NCBI GenBank assembly: GCA_903831815.1
Contig: CAIKZC010000001.1
Coordinates: 85,037-149,036 of the forward strand
Source: an uncultured bacterium
Lineage (GTDB): Bacteria; Patescibacteriota; Minisyncoccia; Phycocordibacterales; UBA11359
Direction: 5' to 3'
Length of the DNA stretch: 64,000 nt
Shown: positions 5,071-53,285 of the stretch, one piece after another
Layout of the letters: every line of letters begins with the position of its first letter
Numbering within the stretch: the first letter of the stretch is position 1
Made by a program: the position numbers and the translations under genes
The notes under the pieces: model-generated
The model's database searches: none
Told to the model about the DNA's origin: nothing
The model's input: the letters and a program-made list of their open reading frames with translations, nothing else

Positions 5071-5517
5071 ATGGCCATATTGTTGGAAAACAAAAAAGCC
5101 CATTTCAACTACGAGATTCTCGAGCGTTTTCAAGCTGGAATTGAAGTTGTGGGACATGAAGTGAAAGCTTTGCGCCATAATCTCGGCTCTCTTGAAGGGG
5201 CCTATATAACGATACGAGGCGGCGAGGCGTATATCATGAATATGTTAATTTCGCCATATCAGGTAAATAACACCGACCCTACCTACGAGCCCCGCCGCAA
5301 TCGCCGCCTCCTCCTCACCAAAAAAGAAATAAAAAAACTTGAAGAAACCGAGCACCAAGCAGGTTTGACAATAGTGCCTATTTCGGTGTATAATAATAAA
5401 CGGTGGATTAAGATGGAAATTGCGATTGTCCGAGGCAAGAAACAATTCGACAAACGCGAGGTCATCAAAAAGCGCGAAACAGATCGCGAAATCCGCCGCG
5501 AATTTAAAGATCGTTGA
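5071..5517 (+). CDS. smpB: SsrA-binding protein SmpB (start 5071 preferred; the longer ORF starts at 5008)
   Basis: MAILLENKKAHFNYEILERFQAGIEVVGHEVKALR... matches the SmpB N-terminus. It lies immediately upstream of the tmRNA. Confidence 0.85.
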   Translation: MAILLENKKAHFNYEILERFQAGIEVVGHEVKALRHNLGSLEGAYITIRGGEAYIMNMLISPYQVNNTDPTYEPRRNRRLLLTKKEIKKLEETEHQAGLTIVPISVYNNKRWIKMEIAIVRGKKQFDKREVIKKRETDREIRREFKDR

Positions 5518-5547: not shown

Positions 5548-5959
5548 GGGGATGATCGGCCTAGACAACTGATTCCCTTCTTGATGTGCGCTATAAGGGT
5601 CCTTGATACCTTCCAATCACCATGGAAATCTAAGTGCTAAAACCTTAGTTGCAAGCGCAAAGTCAACCTTATCTCCATATTTTGGAGCTAAAGACTTCGC
5701 GTTCGCCTACGTTTCTTAACCTAGGCGACGTCTCTCATCCTAATGTTTGGTCAGGATGAAGGGGTGTAATAAATCCAAACTGGAACTTGCGGTTTCTCGG
5801 CGCAAGTTTAAGAACAAGAGGATCGGCGGTGCATGATTTTGTTGGTTTAACCCATGCATTGCCTAAACGCCCACCTACCGGCGGGCACTAAAATCTTCTA
5901 CATAGCGTAGAAACATCAGAAGCATCTTTTGCACGGCGGTTCGATTCCGCCCATCTCCA
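5548..5959 (+). ncRNA. ssrA: Transfer-messenger RNA (tmRNA, ssrA)
   Basis: 5-prime GGGGATG pairs with 3-prime CATCTCC, including the G3-U alanine-identity pair. tRNA-like T arm GGCGG-TTCGATT-CCGCC, discriminator A, no CCA encoded. Length 412 nt, adjacent to smpB. Candidate tag frame ...AKDFAFAYVS ends at TAA 5717-5719 (tentative). Confidence 0.85.
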
Positions 5960-6139
5960 CAGACAAAATAAAAACTGCCCGCTAGGGTGGTTTTTATTTT
6001 GTCTGTAATTGATGATTGCCGGAATCGAAAGCCGGACCGAAGCTGCGATGTGAGCGAAGCGAACCGCAGCGAGGGAGGCGGGGTCGCGCAAAAATTGCGT
6101 AGCAATTTTATGTGTGACCGATGGAGCCTGCCTCCATCA
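5960..6139 (+). repeat. Element A copy 1: AT-rich 15-bp-stem hairpin (5960-6005) plus a 115-nt GC-rich conserved core (6021-6139)
   Basis: About 90% identical to 7345-7517. Several internal hairpins (GCTGCG...CGCAGC; CGCAA-aaa-TTGCG; GATGGAG-n5-CTCCATC). The core begins with GGAATCGAA, part of an inverted copy of the tmRNA T-loop/acceptor. Confidence 0.6.
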
Positions 6140-6214
6140 CTATAAAAGAAAGCGTCACAAAAGTACGCTTTCTTTCTTTTCGACTCATATACATAATTCG
6201 TATATAATAATCAT

Positions 6215-7204
6215 ATGAATATTGAATCAGCACCACAACCCGACAATCCCCAACAAGAAGAGAAAGTTGATCAAGAGAAGAAGTTCTATGAAGCATACCT
6301 AGACTATTTACAAAAATACAAAGCAGAAGCACTAGAAGCCCTCATTGAAATACATAAATATAATCCAAAATATATTTTTCTCACCGAAACCTCAAGCATA
6401 GGGTCTGGTTACGTGATGAAGTCTGGTCTAAAAGCTGCGTACCCAGATACCGAACAGCCAGAGTTTTACAGAGTTAACCCAAGGGATATATTAAAAGTAA
6501 TGTTAATCGGGCAAACCCGATTACTTGGGCAAAATATTGAAGGAATAAGAAAAATTCACCCAACACATATTCCTCGTATAAAGAAAGATGTTAATGATTA
6601 CTTGCGTAATGCTGGAGGATATGACGAGAAATTATTTGAATCAAAGCGACAGGAACTGGAAACATTTTTCAGAAGCAGAATTAAAGATACTTCGGCAAAA
6701 ATTCTTGTTTTCGACTCAGACTGGTCTACAGGGAAAAGTCCGGGAAGTATTGTTTCCCTATTAAAAAACCCTGAACATTACGGTTTTAGTGCTGATATAA
6801 AATGTGAAAACGTGAAAATGAACTTGCCCGAAGTGCCAACTGCACATTGGAATCGATTAAAAACAGCTGATCTTGTTTATGGCGGCAAAGTTCAGTTGGA
6901 TTTAAATCTGGGACCAGAAGATATAATCGGTATTCCGGCAGTTATAGCGCCGCTATCCGGCGTAAGTAATAATATTCCAATAACAGCAAAAAACAAAGAA
7001 TTTACAGGAGCTGGAACTAGAAACTTCAGGGCAAAAATTGCTAAGCTAACAACCGACAATATAAAACAAGTTCACTCTCCCGTTCGAGGGACAGTACCTC
7101 TAAATGCACCTCTAATCACTATTAACGCTCTGGAACAATTCGGCATAAAAATCGGAAATGAGATTAGACAAGATTTAGAAAAGGAACAACAAACAACCCC
7201 ATAA
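6215..7204 (+). CDS. Hypothetical protein (329 aa) flanked by the two copies of element A
   Basis: Long ORF with a TTCGAC-16-TATATAAT promoter-like sequence upstream. No recognisable motifs. Confidence 0.45.
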   Translation: MNIESAPQPDNPQQEEKVDQEKKFYEAYLDYLQKYKAEALEALIEIHKYNPKYIFLTETSSIGSGYVMKSGLKAAYPDTEQPEFYRVNPRDILKVMLIGQTRLLGQNIEGIRKIHPTHIPRIKKDVNDYLRNAGGYDEKLFESKRQELETFFRSRIKDTSAKILVFDSDWSTGKSPGSIVSLLKNPEHYGFSADIKCENVKMNLPEVPTAHWNRLKTADLVYGGKVQLDLNLGPEDIIGIPAVIAPLSGVSNNIPITAKNKEFTGAGTRNFRAKIAKLTTDNIKQVHSPVRGTVPLNAPLITINALEQFGIKIGNEIRQDLEKEQQTTP

Positions 7205-7344
7205 CAAGCTATTCAATTCCTTCTTGTGACTTCTATGATGAAATCTGCCTAAACAAAGTTTTTTAAACCCGAGCTCCACAATCGCCTCCGCCGCTTCAAA
7301 AACCCAAGAATGTAGTTGGTTCCAACTTTGATGCACTGTGTCCA

Positions 7345-7517
7345 CAGACAAATAAAAAACTGCCTCTTAGGTAGTTTTTTATTTGTCTGAAAAAGATGGG
7401 CGGAATCGAAAGCCGGACCGAAGCTGCGATGTGAGCGAAGCGAACCGCAGCGAGGGAGGCGGGGTCGCGCAAAAATTGCGTAGCAATTTTATGCGTGACC
7501 GATGGAGCCCATCTCCA
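7345..7517 (+). repeat. Element A copy 2 (hairpin 7345-7389; GC core 7402-7517)
   Basis: Direct repeat of 5960-6139. 7393-7409 (AGATGGGCGGAATCGAA) is a 17-nt exact reverse complement of the tmRNA 3-prime end (TTCGATTCCGCCCATCT). The copy ends GCCCATCTCCA. Confidence 0.6.
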
Positions 7518-7530
7518 TACAACGCATCCA

Positions 7531-7559
7531 TTGACTATTATACACACTTATGATACTAT
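7531..7559 (+). promoter_or_regulatory. Sigma70-like promoter of cassette gene 1 (TTGACT-17-TACTAT)
   Basis: Same architecture as the promoters at 7997, 8615, 9255 and 9770. Confidence 0.55.
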
Positions 7560-7611
7560 ATTGATGGTGCATTTTCAGAAACCATGTTCATTTATCATGT
7601 AGGAGTAAACC

Positions 7612-7884
7612 ATGAAAGATCTTTTTGCTGAACTGGGCAAGAGATTGCCCAGTGGCATTAATAGTCCCGGTGAATTGGATTTGGCTTTCAGTTGTCTCGC
7701 TTCTTTGCTTCCTGAAGGACCGCTCATGCTTTCGGATCCGGCAGTCTCTATTATATGCGATGCCTTCGAGAAGTTGGGGAAAGCAAAAGAACTTGACATG
7801 GCGGCCGTGACTCAATTGGCCACCAATATCTGCATCCTTTGGGATCTAAGTCTGAAAGCCAAGGCTCAACGGGGACAAAGGTAA
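7612..7884 (+). CDS. Hypothetical small protein (90 aa), cassette 1
   Basis: AGGAGT RBS 8 nt upstream of ATG. Its own promoter and terminator. GC higher than the genome background. Confidence 0.5.
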   Translation: MKDLFAELGKRLPSGINSPGELDLAFSCLASLLPEGPLMLSDPAVSIICDAFEKLGKAKELDMAAVTQLATNICILWDLSLKAKAQRGQR

Positions 7885-7901
7885 ACGCAAACCCGCAGGA
7901 G

Positions 7902-7990
7902 AAGCCGCAAGCTTCCCTGCGGCTTTCTCCTTTCCAAATCACTCAAAACCCTCCAAATTGCGCGGTTCTTAAATCGTTCACTCAACTCCA
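7902..7990 (+). terminator. Terminator hairpin AAGCCGCAagcttcccTGCGGCTT plus a conserved 60-nt downstream module (copy 1 of 2)
   Basis: Near-identical to 8510-8598. Followed by a T-rich tract. Confidence 0.6.
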
Positions 7991-8102
7991 CAACTATTGA
8001 CGAATATTTATAATTATGCTATGATTTACATAGCATTATTTGGTTAACATCGTGTTGATCAAATAAAAAACAGTAAGTTCTATCAAAAAAGGAATCAGAT
8101 CA

Positions 8103-8477
8103 ATGACACAAGTTTATCGAGGAATCGGAAACTCCATCAGTTACCGAGCCGGACTCATGAACGAACTCGCAATGAAGATGGCTGAGCAGGACATCAGAGA
8201 CAAAGAGCTTCGAGGAGAACTTCTCAAACTCGCACCAGCGTTTTTGCACAAATGGCTCTCCGAAGATCTCGTTCTGACAAGCCTGTTCAAGTTTGGCCGG
8301 TATGACACGAAAATAGTCTTCGGCGATATGTACAACTTCAAGAATGTCGCCGACACGAGACAGAAAATCAAAATGCTCGCCGAAGCTTGGGATGGAGTGG
8401 TTCTTATACAGCTCGGCATACCGGATGGCACACCAAAGCCTCACAGGATTCCTATATGCCTCTCGGCAATCATGTAG
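8103..8477 (+). CDS. Hypothetical small protein (124 aa), cassette 2
   Basis: Promoter TTGACG(7997-8002)-17-TATGAT. RBS AAGGAA. Terminator module copy 2 downstream. Confidence 0.5.
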   Translation: MTQVYRGIGNSISYRAGLMNELAMKMAEQDIRDKELRGELLKLAPAFLHKWLSEDLVLTSLFKFGRYDTKIVFGDMYNFKNVADTRQKIKMLAEAWDGVVLIQLGIPDGTPKPHRIPICLSAIM

Positions 8478-8509
8478 GTCCGAGAATTACACGGCAACTA
8501 AGCCGCAGA

Positions 8510-8598
8510 GAAGCCGCAAGCTTCCCTGCGGCTTTTTCTTTTCCAAATCATTCAAGATCCTCCAAATTGTGCGGTTCTTAAATCGATCACTCATCTCC
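8510..8598 (+). terminator. Terminator hairpin plus conserved module (copy 2)
   Basis: AAGCCGCAagcttcccTGCGGCTTTTTC followed by ccaaatcattcaagatcctccaaattgtgcggttcttaaatcg. Confidence 0.6.
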
Positions 8599-8723
8599 AC
8601 CACAAAAATAAAATTTGACGTATCTAATCTATTATTGTAATGTCTATTTTGGATGACGACGTGTGTCGTCACGGTTCCATTTTACGGGTCATAGAGAACC
8701 CCATCCCGAAAGGATAAAATCTC

Positions 8724-9122
8724 ATGTTTCAGAAAGTAAATTTCTTCGTTGATAGTGCGCTTAAGAGAAGAATGTCTGCCAACACGGAAGATGGCCGCTG
8801 TCTCATGACAGAACCCGGAATTTGGGAGATTATGAGACTCATCCCAACACTGTTGGAATTGGGTTATGCCTGGAAACCCTACAATGGTCCACACGATCTA
8901 GGGGTACTTGAAGACCACGATAGCAAAGGGTTTTGCGAGTTCTGCGAGTACGTTAGGAATGCTCGACGTGTTGAAGCAACGATCAGGATGAACGGAAGCG
9001 GGGTAACATATTTCACCGAAGTGAGACTAATCCCCGACAAAAGGTCATCCTCGCAACACGGGTTACTAGCTTTCAGAACCTACCTCGTCGACGGCGCCAC
9101 AGAACTTATGGCTCTCGCATAA
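8724..9122 (+). CDS. Hypothetical small protein (132 aa, Cys-containing), cassette 3
   Basis: Promoter TTGACG(8615-8620)-17-TAATGT. RBS GAAAGGATAA. Terminator AAGCCGCatggttcacccaGCGGCTT at 9162-9195. Confidence 0.5.
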   Translation: MFQKVNFFVDSALKRRMSANTEDGRCLMTEPGIWEIMRLIPTLLELGYAWKPYNGPHDLGVLEDHDSKGFCEFCEYVRNARRVEATIRMNGSGVTYFTEVRLIPDKRSSSQHGLLAFRTYLVDGATELMALA

Positions 9123-9340
9123 CAGCGCCCAACAGACTCTGGTCTACACAGAAGTCAGATGAAGCCGCATGGTTCACCCAGCGGCTTCTTTTTTTAACAA
9201 AAATCAACGTATCTCGCGGCTTTTCCATTGCTTCATTTTTCAAAAAATTAATATTTGACGTCAATGTTGTTATGTGATACTATATTTTTGGCTCAACAGT
9301 TCCAAAACAACACAAACTCAAACAGAAGAAAGGCAAAGTT

Positions 9341-9676
9341 ATGAATAAAATCATCACTTGGGACAAGGTTCTCACACGGAACTTTGTCGGCGGATATGTT
9401 GAACTTGTGAATAAAGGGGTCCGATATTTCGGACCTATCAGCTCGATAATCGCTCATGAAGAAGAGATCAAGGTGTCGGTTTTGTGGCTAGCTCAAAGCG
9501 ACAAAACCATTTGGCGCAAGGTCGTCGACAGTCAGGTAATCACTTTTACGCGTGCCAATCAACCACAAGATATCGGAAGGAATCAAGTACATATCCCGAT
9601 TTCGGTCAAGGCTCAATACACCTTTCACCCAAAAGGCGGCGTACGTTTTGCCTCTTTAAGGGTCGAGGGAGTGTGA
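9341..9676 (+). CDS. Hypothetical small protein (111 aa), cassette 4
   Basis: Promoter TTGACG(9255-9260)-17-TACTAT. RBS AGAAAGG. Terminator at 9709-9741 is identical to the cassette 3 terminator. Confidence 0.5.
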   Translation: MNKIITWDKVLTRNFVGGYVELVNKGVRYFGPISSIIAHEEEIKVSVLWLAQSDKTIWRKVVDSQVITFTRANQPQDIGRNQVHIPISVKAQYTFHPKGGVRFASLRVEGV

Positions 9677-9871
9677 CTTGGATTCAACCCTCTCATGAAG
9701 CACAAGTTAGCCGCATGGTTCACCCAGCGGCTTCTTTTTTTGCCCAAAACCACACCACGAAATCACCGCTTGACAATATAAGTAGTATCTGATAGGATAT
9801 AGGAACAAAGAAGGGTTCGTGTCGAGACACATATTTGTATAATAGTTAAGTAAATAAAATCAAAAAACAAA

Positions 9872-10069
9872 ATGAAGGGAACAATCAAGAAGTTAACTCC
9901 AAAAGGTTTTGGTTTCATCTCCTCAGAAGGCATGGCGAAAGATCTTTTCTTTCACTCAAAGGGCCTTGTAGGCGTACAATTCGATGAATTGCGCGAAGGT
10001 GACGCTGTAACTTTTGATACCGAAGAGTCTCCAAAGGGACCTAACGCTGTCAACGTACAACGAGCATAA
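9872..10069 (+). CDS. cspA: Cold-shock protein, CspA family
   Basis: 65 aa. KGFGFI RNP1 motif. Promoter TTGACA(9770-9775)-17-TAGGAT with an 80-nt 5-prime UTR. Terminator AACTGCCGAGAGATCGGCAGTTTTTTT at 10081-10108. Confidence 0.9.
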   Translation: MKGTIKKLTPKGFGFISSEGMAKDLFFHSKGLVGVQFDELREGDAVTFDTEESPKGPNAVNVQRA

Positions 10070-38668: not shown

Positions 38669-39883
38669 TTGTATTTTAGTAAGATGTTATTCGAAGAACT
38701 GATAAAAAAACATCTGGCCGGAATAGATCTCGACCTTAGAAAAAAACCTGATGGATATTCTCGTTACATGGATCAAAAGGTCACACCGGATGTTTTAACT
38801 TTTATCGCCGACTGCATTGTAAATTTTTTAGGCGGAAAAAAATCTGACACAATTTTCACAACTAAAGATATTTGGGATTTTCAATATTTCCAGAAAAACA
38901 TCGTTGCTATATTTGGTAAACCATCTCCTACAAACGAAAGTGCAAATGCAGAATACGATAAGTTTATTGCTCAACCACTTAAAACTTTAGCATTTGCAAA
39001 GATATTGGAAGAAAAGAAAGTGGGGGTACGAAATACATACCAAGTCATTCAGCCAGAATTGTTGGAGTACATTTCACAAAACGAACGAAATGCTTGGGTA
39101 TTCCTTGTTGTGTATGTTGAAAAAGTTCTAACTGATAGCGGTTTTATTAAAGAGTTAAATTCTTTTAAGACTAAGTCACTTTCTGGAACGGTGACTCAAG
39201 AAGATTTTGAACTCCTCAAAGCAAAATTTGAATCTTTCATGCTTGGATATACAAACATAACAACTGATGTTGAAATTAGACGTATTTTTCCTAAAGTCTT
39301 AAATCCTTACGCAGCTTACAACATGATTAACGGCTCAGAAGATGGGCATATGACAGAAAGTAGATTCGTTTATTCTGACTTAATGTATAACCGATCAAAT
39401 TTTCGAGATTTAGGAAAAGACAAAGCCCTGACAAGAAGTGAGGCTGAAGAAATTTTTATTGGTAAACCAGAATTTTCTGATTACAGAACACAAAAAGCAA
39501 AAAATATTGTAAGAAGAAATCATTCAACCAGCGAGATTCGTGACAAATTGGCTGTCGGAGATGCTACTCAGGTTCACCACATATTCCCCGAACATCAGTT
39601 TCCTAAAATCTCGGCTTTTGTTGAAAATTTAATCCTGTTAACACCACAACAACACAACACAAGAGCTCATCCGAATAACCACACTCAATCTATTGATCGA
39701 GATTATCAACGTGAGTGTATTTTGTCTAAAATTACTTCAATTGAATCTTCAATCAGACAAGGGAAAGACATTTATTCAAAAGAGTCGTTGATCCATGTTC
39801 TAAACACAGGGCTCTCGTTGGACATGTCAACAAACACAACATTCAACGAATTAAGGGAAGTTGTAAAAAAAACGTACGCTTAA
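38669..39883 (+). CDS. Putative HNH-motif (beta-beta-alpha-Me) nuclease, candidate restriction endonuclease
   Basis: C-terminal ...VHHIFPEHQFPKISAFVENLILLTPQQHNTRAH (H-H...N...H). Convergent and overlapping with the MTase stop. AT-rich island. Confidence 0.45.
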   Translation: MYFSKMLFEELIKKHLAGIDLDLRKKPDGYSRYMDQKVTPDVLTFIADCIVNFLGGKKSDTIFTTKDIWDFQYFQKNIVAIFGKPSPTNESANAEYDKFIAQPLKTLAFAKILEEKKVGVRNTYQVIQPELLEYISQNERNAWVFLVVYVEKVLTDSGFIKELNSFKTKSLSGTVTQEDFELLKAKFESFMLGYTNITTDVEIRRIFPKVLNPYAAYNMINGSEDGHMTESRFVYSDLMYNRSNFRDLGKDKALTRSEAEEIFIGKPEFSDYRTQKAKNIVRRNHSTSEIRDKLAVGDATQVHHIFPEHQFPKISAFVENLILLTPQQHNTRAHPNNHTQSIDRDYQRECILSKITSIESSIRQGKDIYSKESLIHVLNTGLSLDMSTNTTFNELREVVKKTYA

Positions 39884-51868: not shown

Positions 51869-52216
51869 TTACAAGTCGCGGTTTTTCTTTTCTGGATTTA
51901 CCAGACTTTTCTTCCAACCACCAAGCATTTTGCCAACATCTTCAAGTTTCAGGGCAACATCTTCATATTGTTTGTCAGAAATGAGCTTACCCTCCCACGC
52001 AACCGAAATCAGAAACTTCAAGGTATCCAGAATCAAAATACATTTTGAAATCTTTTCCAATTTCTTTTCTTTTTCTGTAAAATAAGCAATATAAGCCCAA
52101 TCGAGCAAATCAAGAAATTTATTTTCAATTCGAGAGCCAATAGTATAACGAGACCCTTTAGCAATATGAGGAACAATGTTAACCCAAACCAAATACCCCT
52201 CTTTGATTCTATTCAA
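51869..52216 (-). CDS. avd: DGR accessory variability determinant (Avd, four-helix-bundle family)
   Basis: 115 aa. C-terminal ...LKLEDVGKMLGGWKKSL and N-terminal YLVWVNIVPHIAKGSRYTIG match the bAvd/four-helix-bundle family pattern. On the strand opposite to the RT, overlapping the RT ORF 5-prime end. Confidence 0.65.
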   Translation of the reverse strand: MNRIKEGYLVWVNIVPHIAKGSRYTIGSRIENKFLDLLDWAYIAYFTEKEKKLEKISKCILILDTLKFLISVAWEGKLISDKQYEDVALKLEDVGKMLGGWKKSLVNPEKKNRDL

Positions 52217-53285
52217 AATCGAGGCGTTATCGAGAGAGAGAGAGAGAGAGAGTAAACTGCGGTTTGGTCATATCTATGATGATATCATTTCTATTAAAAA
52301 CTTGCTCATAGCATGGCGCGAATTTTTGCGCAACAAACGCGACCGAAAAGATGTCGAAAGATTTTCACTTCATTTAATGGATAACGTGTTAGCGCTTCAC
52401 CGTGAACTTATAAACAAAACTTACCATCACGGACACTATAAAGCTTTCAAAATCAATGATCCAAAACCCCGTGACATTCACAAAGCGAGTGTTCGGGATC
52501 GACTTTTACACCACGCAATTTACCGAATTTTATATCCATATTTTGATCCTAAATTTATTTTTGATTCGTACTCCTGTCGAAATGTTAAAGGCACGCATCG
52601 TGCCGTAAATCGTTTTCGTAAATATGCTCGCAAAGTTTCAAAAAACCACACCCGAACTGTTTGGATTTTAAAATGTGATATCAGAAAATTTTTTGCCAAT
52701 ATTGATCACAAAATTTTACTAGATATTTTAAAACGACGCATGAGTAATAAAGACACTGTTTGGTTACTAAATGAAGTTATTAAAAGTTTTAACACTAAAA
52801 ATAAATCGGATGTTGGTTTGCCGCTAGGCAATCTTACCAGCCAACTTCTTGTGAATATATACATGAATGAATTTGATCATTTTATCAAACGAAATTTGAA
52901 AATTGCTTATTATGCCAGATATGCAGATGATTTTATTGTTTTGCACGAAAACAAAGAATATCTCAAGGGTATTCTGCCAACAATATCAGAATTTCTAGAA
53001 ACACACCTAAAATTATCACTCCATCCAAACAAAGTTTCCATAAAAACAATTTCTTCTGGAGTCGATTTTTTAGGCTGGGTCAGTTTTCCACACCACAGAG
53101 TTTTACGCAACTCTACAAAAAAGAGGATGTTCAGAAACTTAAATCGAGATCCGAAAAAAGAATCTTTGGCCTCTTATCAAGGACTCTTAAGTCGCGGCGA
53201 TACACATAAATTGAAACAAATGATATCAGAAAAATATTTCGAAAAGAATCAAAGAAACCAAGAGCCAAAGGTTCAGAAAAATTAA
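52176..53285 (+). CDS. DGR reverse transcriptase; true start uncertain (may lie downstream of the (GA)10 tract)
   Basis: RT motifs: LKCDIRKFFANIDHKIL (motif 2), GLPLGNLTSQLLVNIYMNEFD (motif 4/B), YARYADDFIV (YxDD catalytic), LHPNK...GWV. Confidence 0.85.
   Translation: MLTQTKYPSLILFKIEALSRERERESKLRFGHIYDDIISIKNLLIAWREFLRNKRDRKDVERFSLHLMDNVLALHRELINKTYHHGHYKAFKINDPKPRDIHKASVRDRLLHHAIYRILYPYFDPKFIFDSYSCRNVKGTHRAVNRFRKYARKVSKNHTRTVWILKCDIRKFFANIDHKILLDILKRRMSNKDTVWLLNEVIKSFNTKNKSDVGLPLGNLTSQLLVNIYMNEFDHFIKRNLKIAYYARYADDFIVLHENKEYLKGILPTISEFLETHLKLSLHPNKVSIKTISSGVDFLGWVSFPHHRVLRNSTKKRMFRNLNRDPKKESLASYQGLLSRGDTHKLKQMISEKYFEKNQRNQEPKVQKN

Follow-up and report, generated by a model that had tools for sequence, protein, structure and literature searches.

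Integron attC sites stand at the 3' ends of single-gene cassettes that form arrays beside a fixed primary site, and they combine a conserved architecture with a variable internal sequence. Both attC and the folded attP(+) of CTX phage are imperfect palindromes of ~60 to 140 nt in which a folded single strand rebuilds a duplex recombination site. In Dehalococcoides, tandem islands at ssrA, the gene for transfer-messenger RNA (tmRNA), are bounded by 20-bp direct repeats of the ssrA 3' end, and those islands that lack integration genes have been interpreted as cis-mobilizable (McMurdie et al. 2011, PMC3146451). A group I intron in the tmRNA T-loop is mentioned for Bacillota in a preprint (bioRxiv 10.1101/2025.07.03.662931). 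Here we describe module A, a folded element of ~130 nt that, preceded each time by a hairpin, occurs twice downstream of ssrA in a 64-kb stretch of DNA (the window) from an uncultured bacterium of the Candidate Phyla Radiation (CPR, or Patescibacteria; contig CAIKZC010000001.1). CPR bacteria have tiny genomes with few recognizable mobile elements, and their exchange of accessory genes is poorly understood.

Module A represents a previously undescribed family of non-coding modules of ~130 nt, folded and placed after tmRNA and tRNA genes, together t(m)RNA genes, in the CPR. Insertion at a t(m)RNA 3' end is of a known kind; the structured module found there is undescribed. We favor, tentatively and at slightly less than even odds, a reading in which the hairpin and module A together serve small non-autonomous cassettes as their boundary or recombination module, the cassettes inserting at the 3' ends of t(m)RNA genes by means of a recombinase supplied in trans.

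Tandem hairpin and module units downstream of ssrA

Downstream of ssrA the order is terminator hairpin, module A1, a single open reading frame (ORF) designated ORF329, element B, a second terminator hairpin and module A2, with the two hairpin and module units in tandem (Table 1). An earlier reading made from the letters of the window alone (the sequence-only reading) had described direct repeats of about 90% identity, each a hairpin plus a GC-rich core, on either side of the ORF at 6215-7204. This description held with small corrections of the coordinates: 5955/5956-6137/6140 aligns with 7340/7341-7518 at 89 to 90% identity over 173 to 182 nt. The identity is uneven, as the inner 109 nt (6020-6128 and 7401-7509) match at 108 of 109 positions, and the two units differ mainly in the hairpin and towards either end of the core. 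These are the only two copies of the element in the window, and both lie at the ssrA locus.

The sequence that the modules copy and mirror is the tmRNA's 3' end (D1 in Table 1). The gene is a full-length match to the Rfam tmRNA model (model positions 1-374; 79.4 bits against a threshold of 47, E 3.8e-29) and ends without an encoded CCA (..CATCTCCA|CAG), its terminus reading ..GGCGG-TTCGATT-CCGCC-CATCTCC-A with the last base at 5959. The 17-mer TTCGATTCCGCCCATCT at 5940-5956 on the plus strand recurs exactly on the minus strand at 7394-7410, one base along from the 7393-7409 given by the sequence-only reading. A third copy, with three mismatches, lies at 6013-6029 on the minus strand, so A1 has an inverted arm too, and not A2 alone. 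Three sites at up to three mismatches compare with 0.25 expected, and none of 100 shuffles equaled that number. At the other end of the module the tmRNA end is copied directly. As had been noticed earlier, A2 ends like the tmRNA: GCCCATCTCCA of the gene end recurs at 7507-7517, so that the direct copy is exact over 11 of 11 nt there (15/18 overall). The copy at the 3' end of A1 is weaker and degenerate (12/18). In A2 the two ends form a helix in which AGATGGGC (7394-7401) pairs with GCCCATCT (7507-7514).

The exact 17-nt inverted repeat (5940-5956 and 7394-7410) brackets 1.44 kb, and the sequence-only reading had offered an invertible segment as one explanation, in which a recombinase would flip 5957-7393 between the inverted 17-mers and thereby change the sequence after ssrA. 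We regard this as very improbable. The inverted arm is built into every copy of module A at 11 loci, including single copies without a distant partner, and the inverted arm of A1 itself lies 54 nt from the tmRNA end. All seven independent metagenome contigs that cross the left or the right junction are colinear with the window (assemblies), and no invertase is found among the 33 scanned window ORFs, nor a recombinase nearby. Inversion is not supported, since each module has the inverted 17-mer as an arm of its own; in A2 it is the 5' strand of the closing helix and not another recombination partner 1.45 kb away.

Hairpin 1 reads as a bidirectional intrinsic terminator of ssrA, although a simple terminator scan did not include it among its calls. 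Several metagenome contigs stop inside module A, as would be expected of a repeat; the repeat breaks assemblies, which is of practical relevance.

A family of modules after t(m)RNA genes in the CPR

A covariance model, R1, was built from four near-identical copies (A1 and A2 of the window and those of loci L014 and L097) and run on the loci collected in the analysis. It placed module A 45 to 75 nt downstream of ssrA, on the same strand, in nine other CPR (Paceibacteria) genomes. The closest relatives carry a single hairpin and module unit after ssrA (L014, 2948-3078; L097, 8920-9050), and two Taylorbacteria-like loci (L021 and L099) have a far more diverged module at the same position. Further members scored 63 bits (L033), 50 bits (L022 and L034), 31 bits (L019) and 24 bits (L029), and R1 also recovered one orphan copy (L026) and one copy far from ssrA (L031). 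Position and strand after ssrA are constant across lineages down to 58 to 64% SmpB identity.

The sequence-only reading had tied the element to ssrA and pointed to the ssrA loci of related genomes as the place to check its presence. There the distribution is patchy: module A follows ssrA in 10 of the 27 CPR loci with a locatable tmRNA end, and it is absent in two close relatives, L098 and L018. The tie to ssrA stood for most copies and failed for two, one of which lies at a tRNA-Ile gene with re-matched arms (L031, below) and the other of which is the orphan. The R1 search found no module A in 43 non-CPR ssrA loci, and across the 27 CPR loci we saw no clear correlation between the presence of module A and a missing encoded CCA. 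By eye, the ORF after ssrA in L018 (2330-2500), where there is no module A, resembles a GIY-YIG nuclease (YVYILQS..YYTG..L..R..H).

Copies are also found rearranged. In L099 a module of the L021 type is followed by the 3' half of a module of the window type, giving a hybrid, and L220 holds an array of three copies, remnants included, flanked by host-like genes. In L019 (6150-6260) the 3' end of module A is followed by a second terminator hairpin and then by the start of a second module (TGGAGATG-hairpin-GGGGGTATCGAA), the remainder of which is different or interrupted. Pattern scans of the core added little to this set. Three exact 22-23-mers gave no matches in viral contigs and one exact 23-mer none in genome contigs, and a gapped core pattern gave, in metagenome contigs, chance matches in GC-rich genomes only. 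Degenerate core patterns returned 120+, 2, 25 and 5 stretches in viral contigs, of which only L220 proved real after screening with R1. Weak matches to module A in L252 and L241 were rejected as low-complexity sequence and a tRNA.

The core of module A is 96 to 99% identical between the window, L014 and L097, compared with 85 to 89% for ssrA, 78 to 80% for smpB and 78% for ftsH. This bears on the simplest account of the window, a plain local duplication by unequal or illegitimate recombination when ORF329 arrived, with the tmRNA-like arms as decaying integration scars. Such an event would fit the presence of only two copies in 64 kb, both at the ssrA locus, the scar-like appearance of the degenerate tmRNA-3'-like tails of element B and of the 96-nt repeats farther downstream, and the failure to find a recombinase. 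It is largely refuted by a family that extends over at least 11 loci with compensatory changes, unlike neutral scars, by arms that track the T arm of each host, and by a core conserved at 96 to 99% where flanking essential genes reach 78 to 89%. We therefore consider local duplication improbable.

Arms that copy and mirror the neighboring gene

At every locus the module terminates in a direct copy of how the t(m)RNA gene of its own genome ends, partly degenerate in A1 and A2. The copy spans 19 nt in L097 (CGATTCCCGCCATCTCCAC) and reads CGATTCCCGCCACTTCCAC in L099; it matches at 17 to 18 of 18 nt in L099, L022 and L019, and at 17 of 18 nt in L034 if a 1-nt deletion is allowed (14/18 ungapped). 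In L021 it reaches 33 nt and overshoots the gene by 12 nt. The copies vary along with lineage-specific changes of the T arm. The 5' arm is complementary to the same t(m)RNA end at each locus and follows the lineage-specific T-loop variants TTCAACT, TTCGCTA and TTCGATA. In L022, L034, L019 and L029 a small hairpin splits this arm exactly between the complement of the acceptor and that of the T-stem. The predicted duplex between the 5' arm and the last 20 nt of the tmRNA has an energy of -18 to -32 kcal/mol at 11 of 11 loci, and the pairing of the arm with these 20 nt is at least as good as its pairing with the 3' end of the module itself.

The copy far from ssrA extends this pattern to a tRNA gene. 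In L031 (1-790, minus strand), two identical units of ~155 nt, which we call X, stand in tandem after tRNA-Ile(UAU). Each consists of a hairpin, an inverted copy of the tRNA T-loop and T-stem and a long hairpin, and ends in 23 nt copied directly from the tRNA 3' end; the core differs from that of A, and the plan is shared. The X units are followed by a terminator, an A-like module with arms resembling the tRNA-Ile T arm, and a further remnant. With its arms re-matched to tRNA-Ile, the module thus adapts to whichever t(m)RNA gene precedes it, and the architecture seems to be more general than the A core itself.

Fold and non-coding nature of module A

The plus strand of module A folds well below shuffled controls (z -4.6 for A1, -5.3 for A2, -4.6 for L097 and -3.6 for L021), and the minus strand folds less well (z -2.2 for A1 and -4.0 for A2). 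All types have a common shape, in which helix P1 closes the module, P2 forms a hairpin domain in the middle and P3 is a long hairpin; P1 is seen in the folds of A2, L097, L021 and L099. In a 13-member alignment, A6, which was fitted to the model and so leans towards structure, 97.9% of cells are paired and 24 of 35 pairs show double-sided changes. The covariation score is 0.497, compared with 0.143 for shuffles (none of 500 reached the observed score) and at most 0.099 when partners are slid by 1 to 3 columns. The distal half of P3 consists of unrelated sequences between lineages, with the pairing always kept. Changes are also seen at close range: among the four near-identical copies one P2 pair switches from C-G to U-A, and the closing stem, which is AGAUG/CAUCU in A2 and L014 and UGAUG/CAUCA in A1, has A-U as its outermost pair in the former and U-A in the latter, a change on both sides. 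A G.U pair at alignment columns 133/197 is invariant in all 13 members, which marks the plus strand as the folding strand. As judged from these sequence comparisons, the fold of module A is under selection.

Other identities for the module were considered and set aside. It is not protein-coding: the ORFs at 5987-6145 and 7383-7553 are open in the window, but a CGA>TGA change interrupts that frame in L014 and L097, and other family members have indels that are not multiples of three. In Rfam 15 only the tmRNA and tRNA reach the gathering score and module A has no family match; the matches at E<=10 over 5900-8700 are at chance level, and the lack of any Rfam signal speaks against a group I intron or known ribozyme. 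A template/variable pair of a diversity-generating retroelement (DGR) was likewise rejected, since the copies are non-coding and differ chiefly near the ends of the module, at positions that are not adenine-specific. A reverse transcriptase is encoded 45 kb from module A (52176-53285; Pfam RVT_1, generic reverse transcriptase model in PADLOC), and no direct repeats of at least 40 nt occur around it within 49-57.5 kb, so there is no obvious DGR template/variable pair at that gene. In L099, a gene for the DGR accessory protein bAvd (905-1231) lies ~1.3 kb upstream of smpB.

A fold that is conserved on one strand beside ssrA would also suit a resident structured non-coding RNA, transcribed from the ssrA strand by read-through of the terminator, whose P1 imitates the stack of acceptor and T-stem. 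The enzymes that process tRNA could excise such an RNA; alternatively, its 5' arm and the tmRNA 3' end could form a duplex that serves in processing or quality control. The duplication around ORF329 would then be a secondary rearrangement. This is the main rival of the cassette reading, and we think it possible but doubtful. In its favor, the 3' strand of P1 is the same as in the tmRNA and the 5' strand is fully Watson-Crick, with A-U where the tmRNA has G3.U70, and several lineages have a hairpin where the D arm would leave. The strong covariation, the invariant G.U on the plus strand and the better folding of that strand point the same way, as do the constant placement after ssrA in distant lineages, the complementarity of the 5' arm to the tmRNA 3' end at every locus, a core more conserved than ssrA itself, and the lack of a recombinase near any copy examined. 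Several features are hard to square with an RNA. The gene is always separated from A by a strong terminator hairpin, there is no space for a promoter, and no promoter match is consistent; A is missing directly after ssrA in L008 and L009, which have an identical ssrA, and in the close relatives L098 and L018; hybrid, truncated and tandem copies occur; and there is no match to an Rfam family. In L021, moreover, the 33-nt repeat continues beyond the gene and takes in one half of a terminator stem without its partner, which argues for a DNA footprint and not for an RNA requirement. In a related reading, module A may be made as RNA and act either antisense to the tmRNA 3' end or as its mimic. The RNA reading and the cassette reading could both hold.

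P2 is tipped by GCGAAGC (6054-6060 and 7435-7441), a sequence known to form an unusually stable mini-hairpin in DNA and also present in the L031 copy. At most, this hints at a DNA strand as the folded form.

Strain variation at the tmRNA gene end

Two loci from other samples match the window through smpB and ssrA at 100% identity, L008 over 4.5 kb and L009 over 3.0 kb, and diverge from it at 5960/5961, that is, at the very end of the tmRNA. L008 continues as ..CTCCA-CCAAACAAG.. with another ORF, and L009 as ..CTCCA-CAACTATTGAC.., which resembles the window junction at 7990. Over a larger distance, L097 is syntenic with the window (RecG-FtsH-SmpB-ssrA ... CSD-IF3-L35) yet has entirely different genes between ssrA and the cspA-IF3-L35 block. 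In the window, the corresponding interval (5960-9870) contains five separators that end like the tmRNA, namely the two A modules, element B and two 96-nt repeats. As read from these alignments, the interval between ssrA and cspA is a cassette region bounded by tmRNA-3'-like sequences and a recombination hot spot, with strain-level turnover of cassettes exactly at the end of the tmRNA gene.

The sequence-only reading had suggested an element that targets the ssrA 3' end. In the broad sense this stands, given the divergence of strains at 5960/5961 and the exact direct copies of 18 to 33 nt in relatives. That reading had seen no integrase in the window, and none of the 33 ORFs that we compared with Pfam has a recombinase domain. 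The search that it proposed beyond the window was also negative in 10 ORFs of six relatives and beside the L220 array.

A possible boundary module of small cassettes

Under the cassette reading, the cassettes would insert at tmRNA and occasionally tRNA 3' ends in Paceibacteria. The module would be the substrate of a trans-acting recombinase, its P1 helix pairing the inverted copy of the host gene's 3' end with the direct copy, and P2 and P3 forming internal hairpins. From the covarying fold and the folding of the plus strand, we infer that the module acts as a folded single strand, in which the P1 duplex would imitate the double-stranded target. The ancestral and commonest state would be ssrA followed by the terminator and one module A, and the A1-ORF329-A2 tandem of the window is what one reciprocal crossover, site-specific or homologous, would produce between the resident module and that of an incoming cassette. 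Farther downstream, older cassettes would be bounded by simpler tmRNA-3'-like scars. This proposal draws on the replacement of DNA between strains from the tmRNA end onwards, the direct copies of the local gene end at the distal edge of A, the same plan after tRNA-Ile in L031, the hybrid and truncated copies, a core more alike between genomes than ssrA, smpB and ftsH, the patchy distribution, the selected fold and the precedent of the Dehalococcoides islands.

Several observations weigh against this proposal. No recombinase was found among the 33 scanned ORFs of the window, among 10 ORFs of six relatives in the ~4.5 kb that follow A, or next to the array of L220, and no copy adjoining an integrase turned up on a phage contig in pattern scans, which were not exhaustive. 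In most genomes A is single, cargo-free and in the same place, and so looks like a stable resident feature. The inverted arm matches the current host's t(m)RNA at every locus, though site-specific exchange would not replace an internal arm, and the cassette model therefore needs selection for pairing or templated correction across the palindrome. The 3' copies of A1 and A2 (CGATGGAGCC...) share derived differences from the tmRNA end of the window, which implies that they were not freshly copied from the present host. Neither an excised circle nor an empty site was observed, and the covariation counts carry the lean towards structure noted above.

If module A is a recombination site, it would provide a compact mechanism of gene capture and a means of tracing the recombinase that is still missing; were it an RNA instead, it would be a new tmRNA-linked structured RNA with acceptor-stem mimicry. 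Either way, model R1 and alignment A6 provide a searchable motif.

Gene content of the locus

Coordinates of the features described here are collected in Table 1. The SmpB product (P0026) is the same on 15 contigs; its homologues are named Candidatus Taylorbacteria (CPR), to which the source bacterium is close, and the nearest genome locus is UBA11359.

Table 1. Features of the ssrA locus and of the interval downstream of it, in window coordinates
Feature	Position	Strand	Description
smpB	5071-5517	+	148 aa, directly upstream of ssrA; Pfam SmpB, E 2e-49
ssrA (tmRNA)	5548-5959	+	Rfam RF00023 match at 5548-5962; smpB adjacent
tmRNA 3' end (D1)	5940-5959	+	3' part of T-loop, 3' strand of T-stem, 3' strand of acceptor, discriminator
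Hairpin 1	5959-6006	.	Inverted repeat, 22-nt arms, 91% complementary; AT-rich stem of ~22 bp, GC-rich tip, flanking A and T runs
Module A1	6010-6140	+	Model R1, 156 bits; fold -57 kcal/mol, z -4.6
A1 5' arm	6013-6029	+	Inverted tmRNA 3' end with three mismatches
A1 P2	6031-6079	+	
A1 P3	6082-6119	+	
A1 3' end	6120-6140	+	Degenerate direct copy of tmRNA 3' end
Second hairpin and T run	~6147-6180	+	Sequence reading
Promoter-like site for ORF329	6180-6208	+	TCGACT-17-TATAAT; promoter scan
ORF329	6215-7204	+	Cargo gene, no family assigned
Element B	7272-7344	+	Pseudo tmRNA-3'-end block, abuts hairpin 2
Hairpin 2 (copy of hairpin 1)	7345-7389	.	Inverted repeat, 21-nt arms, 95% complementary
Module A2	7391-7521	+	Model R1, 161 bits; fold -60 kcal/mol, z -5.3
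A2 5' arm	7394-7410	+	
A2 P2	7412-7460	+	
A2 P3	7463-7500	+	
A2 3' end	7500-7517	+	
Four single-gene units	7531-9740	+	Each with promoter, small ORF, terminator
ORF90	7612-7884	+	
96-nt direct repeat, first copy	7899-7994		3' of ORF90; copies 91% identical
ORF124	8103-8477	+	
96-nt direct repeat, second copy	8508-8603		3' of ORF124
ORF132	8724-9122	+	
ORF111	9341-9676	+	
cspA-like gene	9872-10069	+	First conserved syntenic gene past the variable interval; cluster named cold shock protein

ORF329 gave no sequence match in Pfam, PHROG, PADLOC or PDB. Its AlphaFold2 model has a pLDDT (predicted local distance difference test) of 76, and the best fold match in PDB reaches E 0.16. We rejected the idea that ORF329 is a hidden recombinase, as it has no family matches, no PDB neighbor below E 0.16, and weak hints only of a Rossmann-like or phosphoribosyltransferase-like fold. 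Only 10 homologues were found, some of them on contigs with archaeal markers. The most distant homologue (513 aa; L002-L005, ~10001-11542 in L002) is on contigs with Sec61-beta, NAC and ribosomal L15e, and shares with window 6349-6393 a 45-nt stretch of 89% nucleotide identity. On its face, this similarity suggests transfer between CPR bacteria and DPANN-like archaea.

Element B ends in ..ATCTCCACCA, followed by a TTGAC promoter box, and contains the near-palindrome AGTTGGTTCCAACT. Blocks of ~66 nt with 77 to 94% identity to it occur in L097 (10020-10085), L014 (3491-3542) and L020 (6937-7013), and element B may be a second type of cassette boundary. In the four single-gene units that follow A2, each ORF is preceded by TTGAC-17-TAnnnT (a consensus match only, from the promoter scan), and none of ORF90, ORF124, ORF132 and ORF111 has a family match. 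The two 96-nt repeats each consist of a terminator hairpin and a tail alignable both to element B and to the 3' region of the tmRNA; these tails are degenerate tmRNA 3' ends (..CTCATCTCCACCAC). The cspA-like gene beyond them is syntenic with the CSD gene of L097.

Further observations concern the tRNA and tmRNA genes and one ORF elsewhere in the window. A tRNA-Ile gene with the anticodon UAU, which is unusual for bacteria, lies at 2574-2648, and the same gene is found near smpB/ssrA in L022, L029 and L031; in L031 it is where the tandem small units dock. ARAGORN did not call the tmRNA of the window (5548-5962), and it also misses those of L026, L029, L033 and L034. The Rfam tmRNA model detects the tmRNAs of the window, L026 and L029 at 79 to 102 bits (these three were scanned). 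Standard annotation would therefore overlook ssrA in part of these CPR genomes. A 404-aa ORF at 38669-39883, among ribosomal and translation genes, has no Pfam match and weak PHROG matches to HNH endonucleases.

Comparison with known systems

The Dehalococcoides islands resemble the window in that variable DNA lies directly downstream of a single-copy ssrA, in tandem units, with direct repeats that start in the T-loop. They differ in being kilobases long, many with a serine recombinase (DsiB) module, and in having plain 20-mer repeats, whereas the units of the window measure 0.15 to 1.4 kb, no recombinase was found for them, and their boundary is a structured one of ~130 nt with an inverted copy of the target and covarying hairpins. 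The classic integrase-encoding islands and prophages of t(m)RNA genes likewise target the 3' part of the gene, restore its end from the insert and leave the displaced end as a direct repeat. Unlike them, the module A element is minute, often cargo-free and without an integrase that we could find, and it contains an inverted copy of the target, which classic attP, attL and attR sites do not need.

Among RNAs, tRNA mimics of the mascRNA type and 3' external transcribed spacers share with module A a helix like that of the acceptor and T-stem, placed downstream of another RNA, which could be recognized by tRNA-processing enzymes. Module A differs in having neither a cloverleaf nor a T loop, in a helix that perfectly complements the 3' strand of its neighbor, and in the terminator that separates it from the gene. 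The group I intron mentioned for Bacillota similarly adds structured sequence around the ssrA T-loop, with a short piece of the gene's 3' part left downstream. In the window, the tmRNA model passes through the first 3' end without a break, a group I match is absent even at E<=10, and module A is too small for such an intron and lies behind a terminator.

Integron attC sites differ from module A in several respects. Beside the modules there is no IntI-type or Xer-type gene, and no integrase is found among the 33 scanned ORFs of the window. The R''/R' core motifs are lacking: the module starts with ..AGATGGGCGG and ends with ..GCCCATCTCCA, neither of which agrees with the inverse core RYYYAAC or the core GTTRRRY. 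The cassettes of the window carry their own promoters (consensus matches) and terminators, whereas integron cassettes are mostly promoterless. The internal domain of module A is conserved and structured, and the "primary site" would be the end of a t(m)RNA gene. The likeness lies in the plan, as module A is an imperfect palindrome whose ends pair within one strand and which stands after ORF329 and after the units of arrays. By analogy with attC, module A might thus recombine as a single strand. A wider extension of this analogy, which we consider unlikely though not fanciful, is that Paceibacteria practice an integron-like form of gene capture, in which ssrA or a tRNA gene would offer its 3' end as the fixed docking site, module A would be a novel folded single-strand attachment site whose closing helix restores the target's double-stranded acceptor/T-arm sequence out of one inverted and one direct copy, and an unlinked recombinase would shuffle single-gene cassettes that bring their own promoters.

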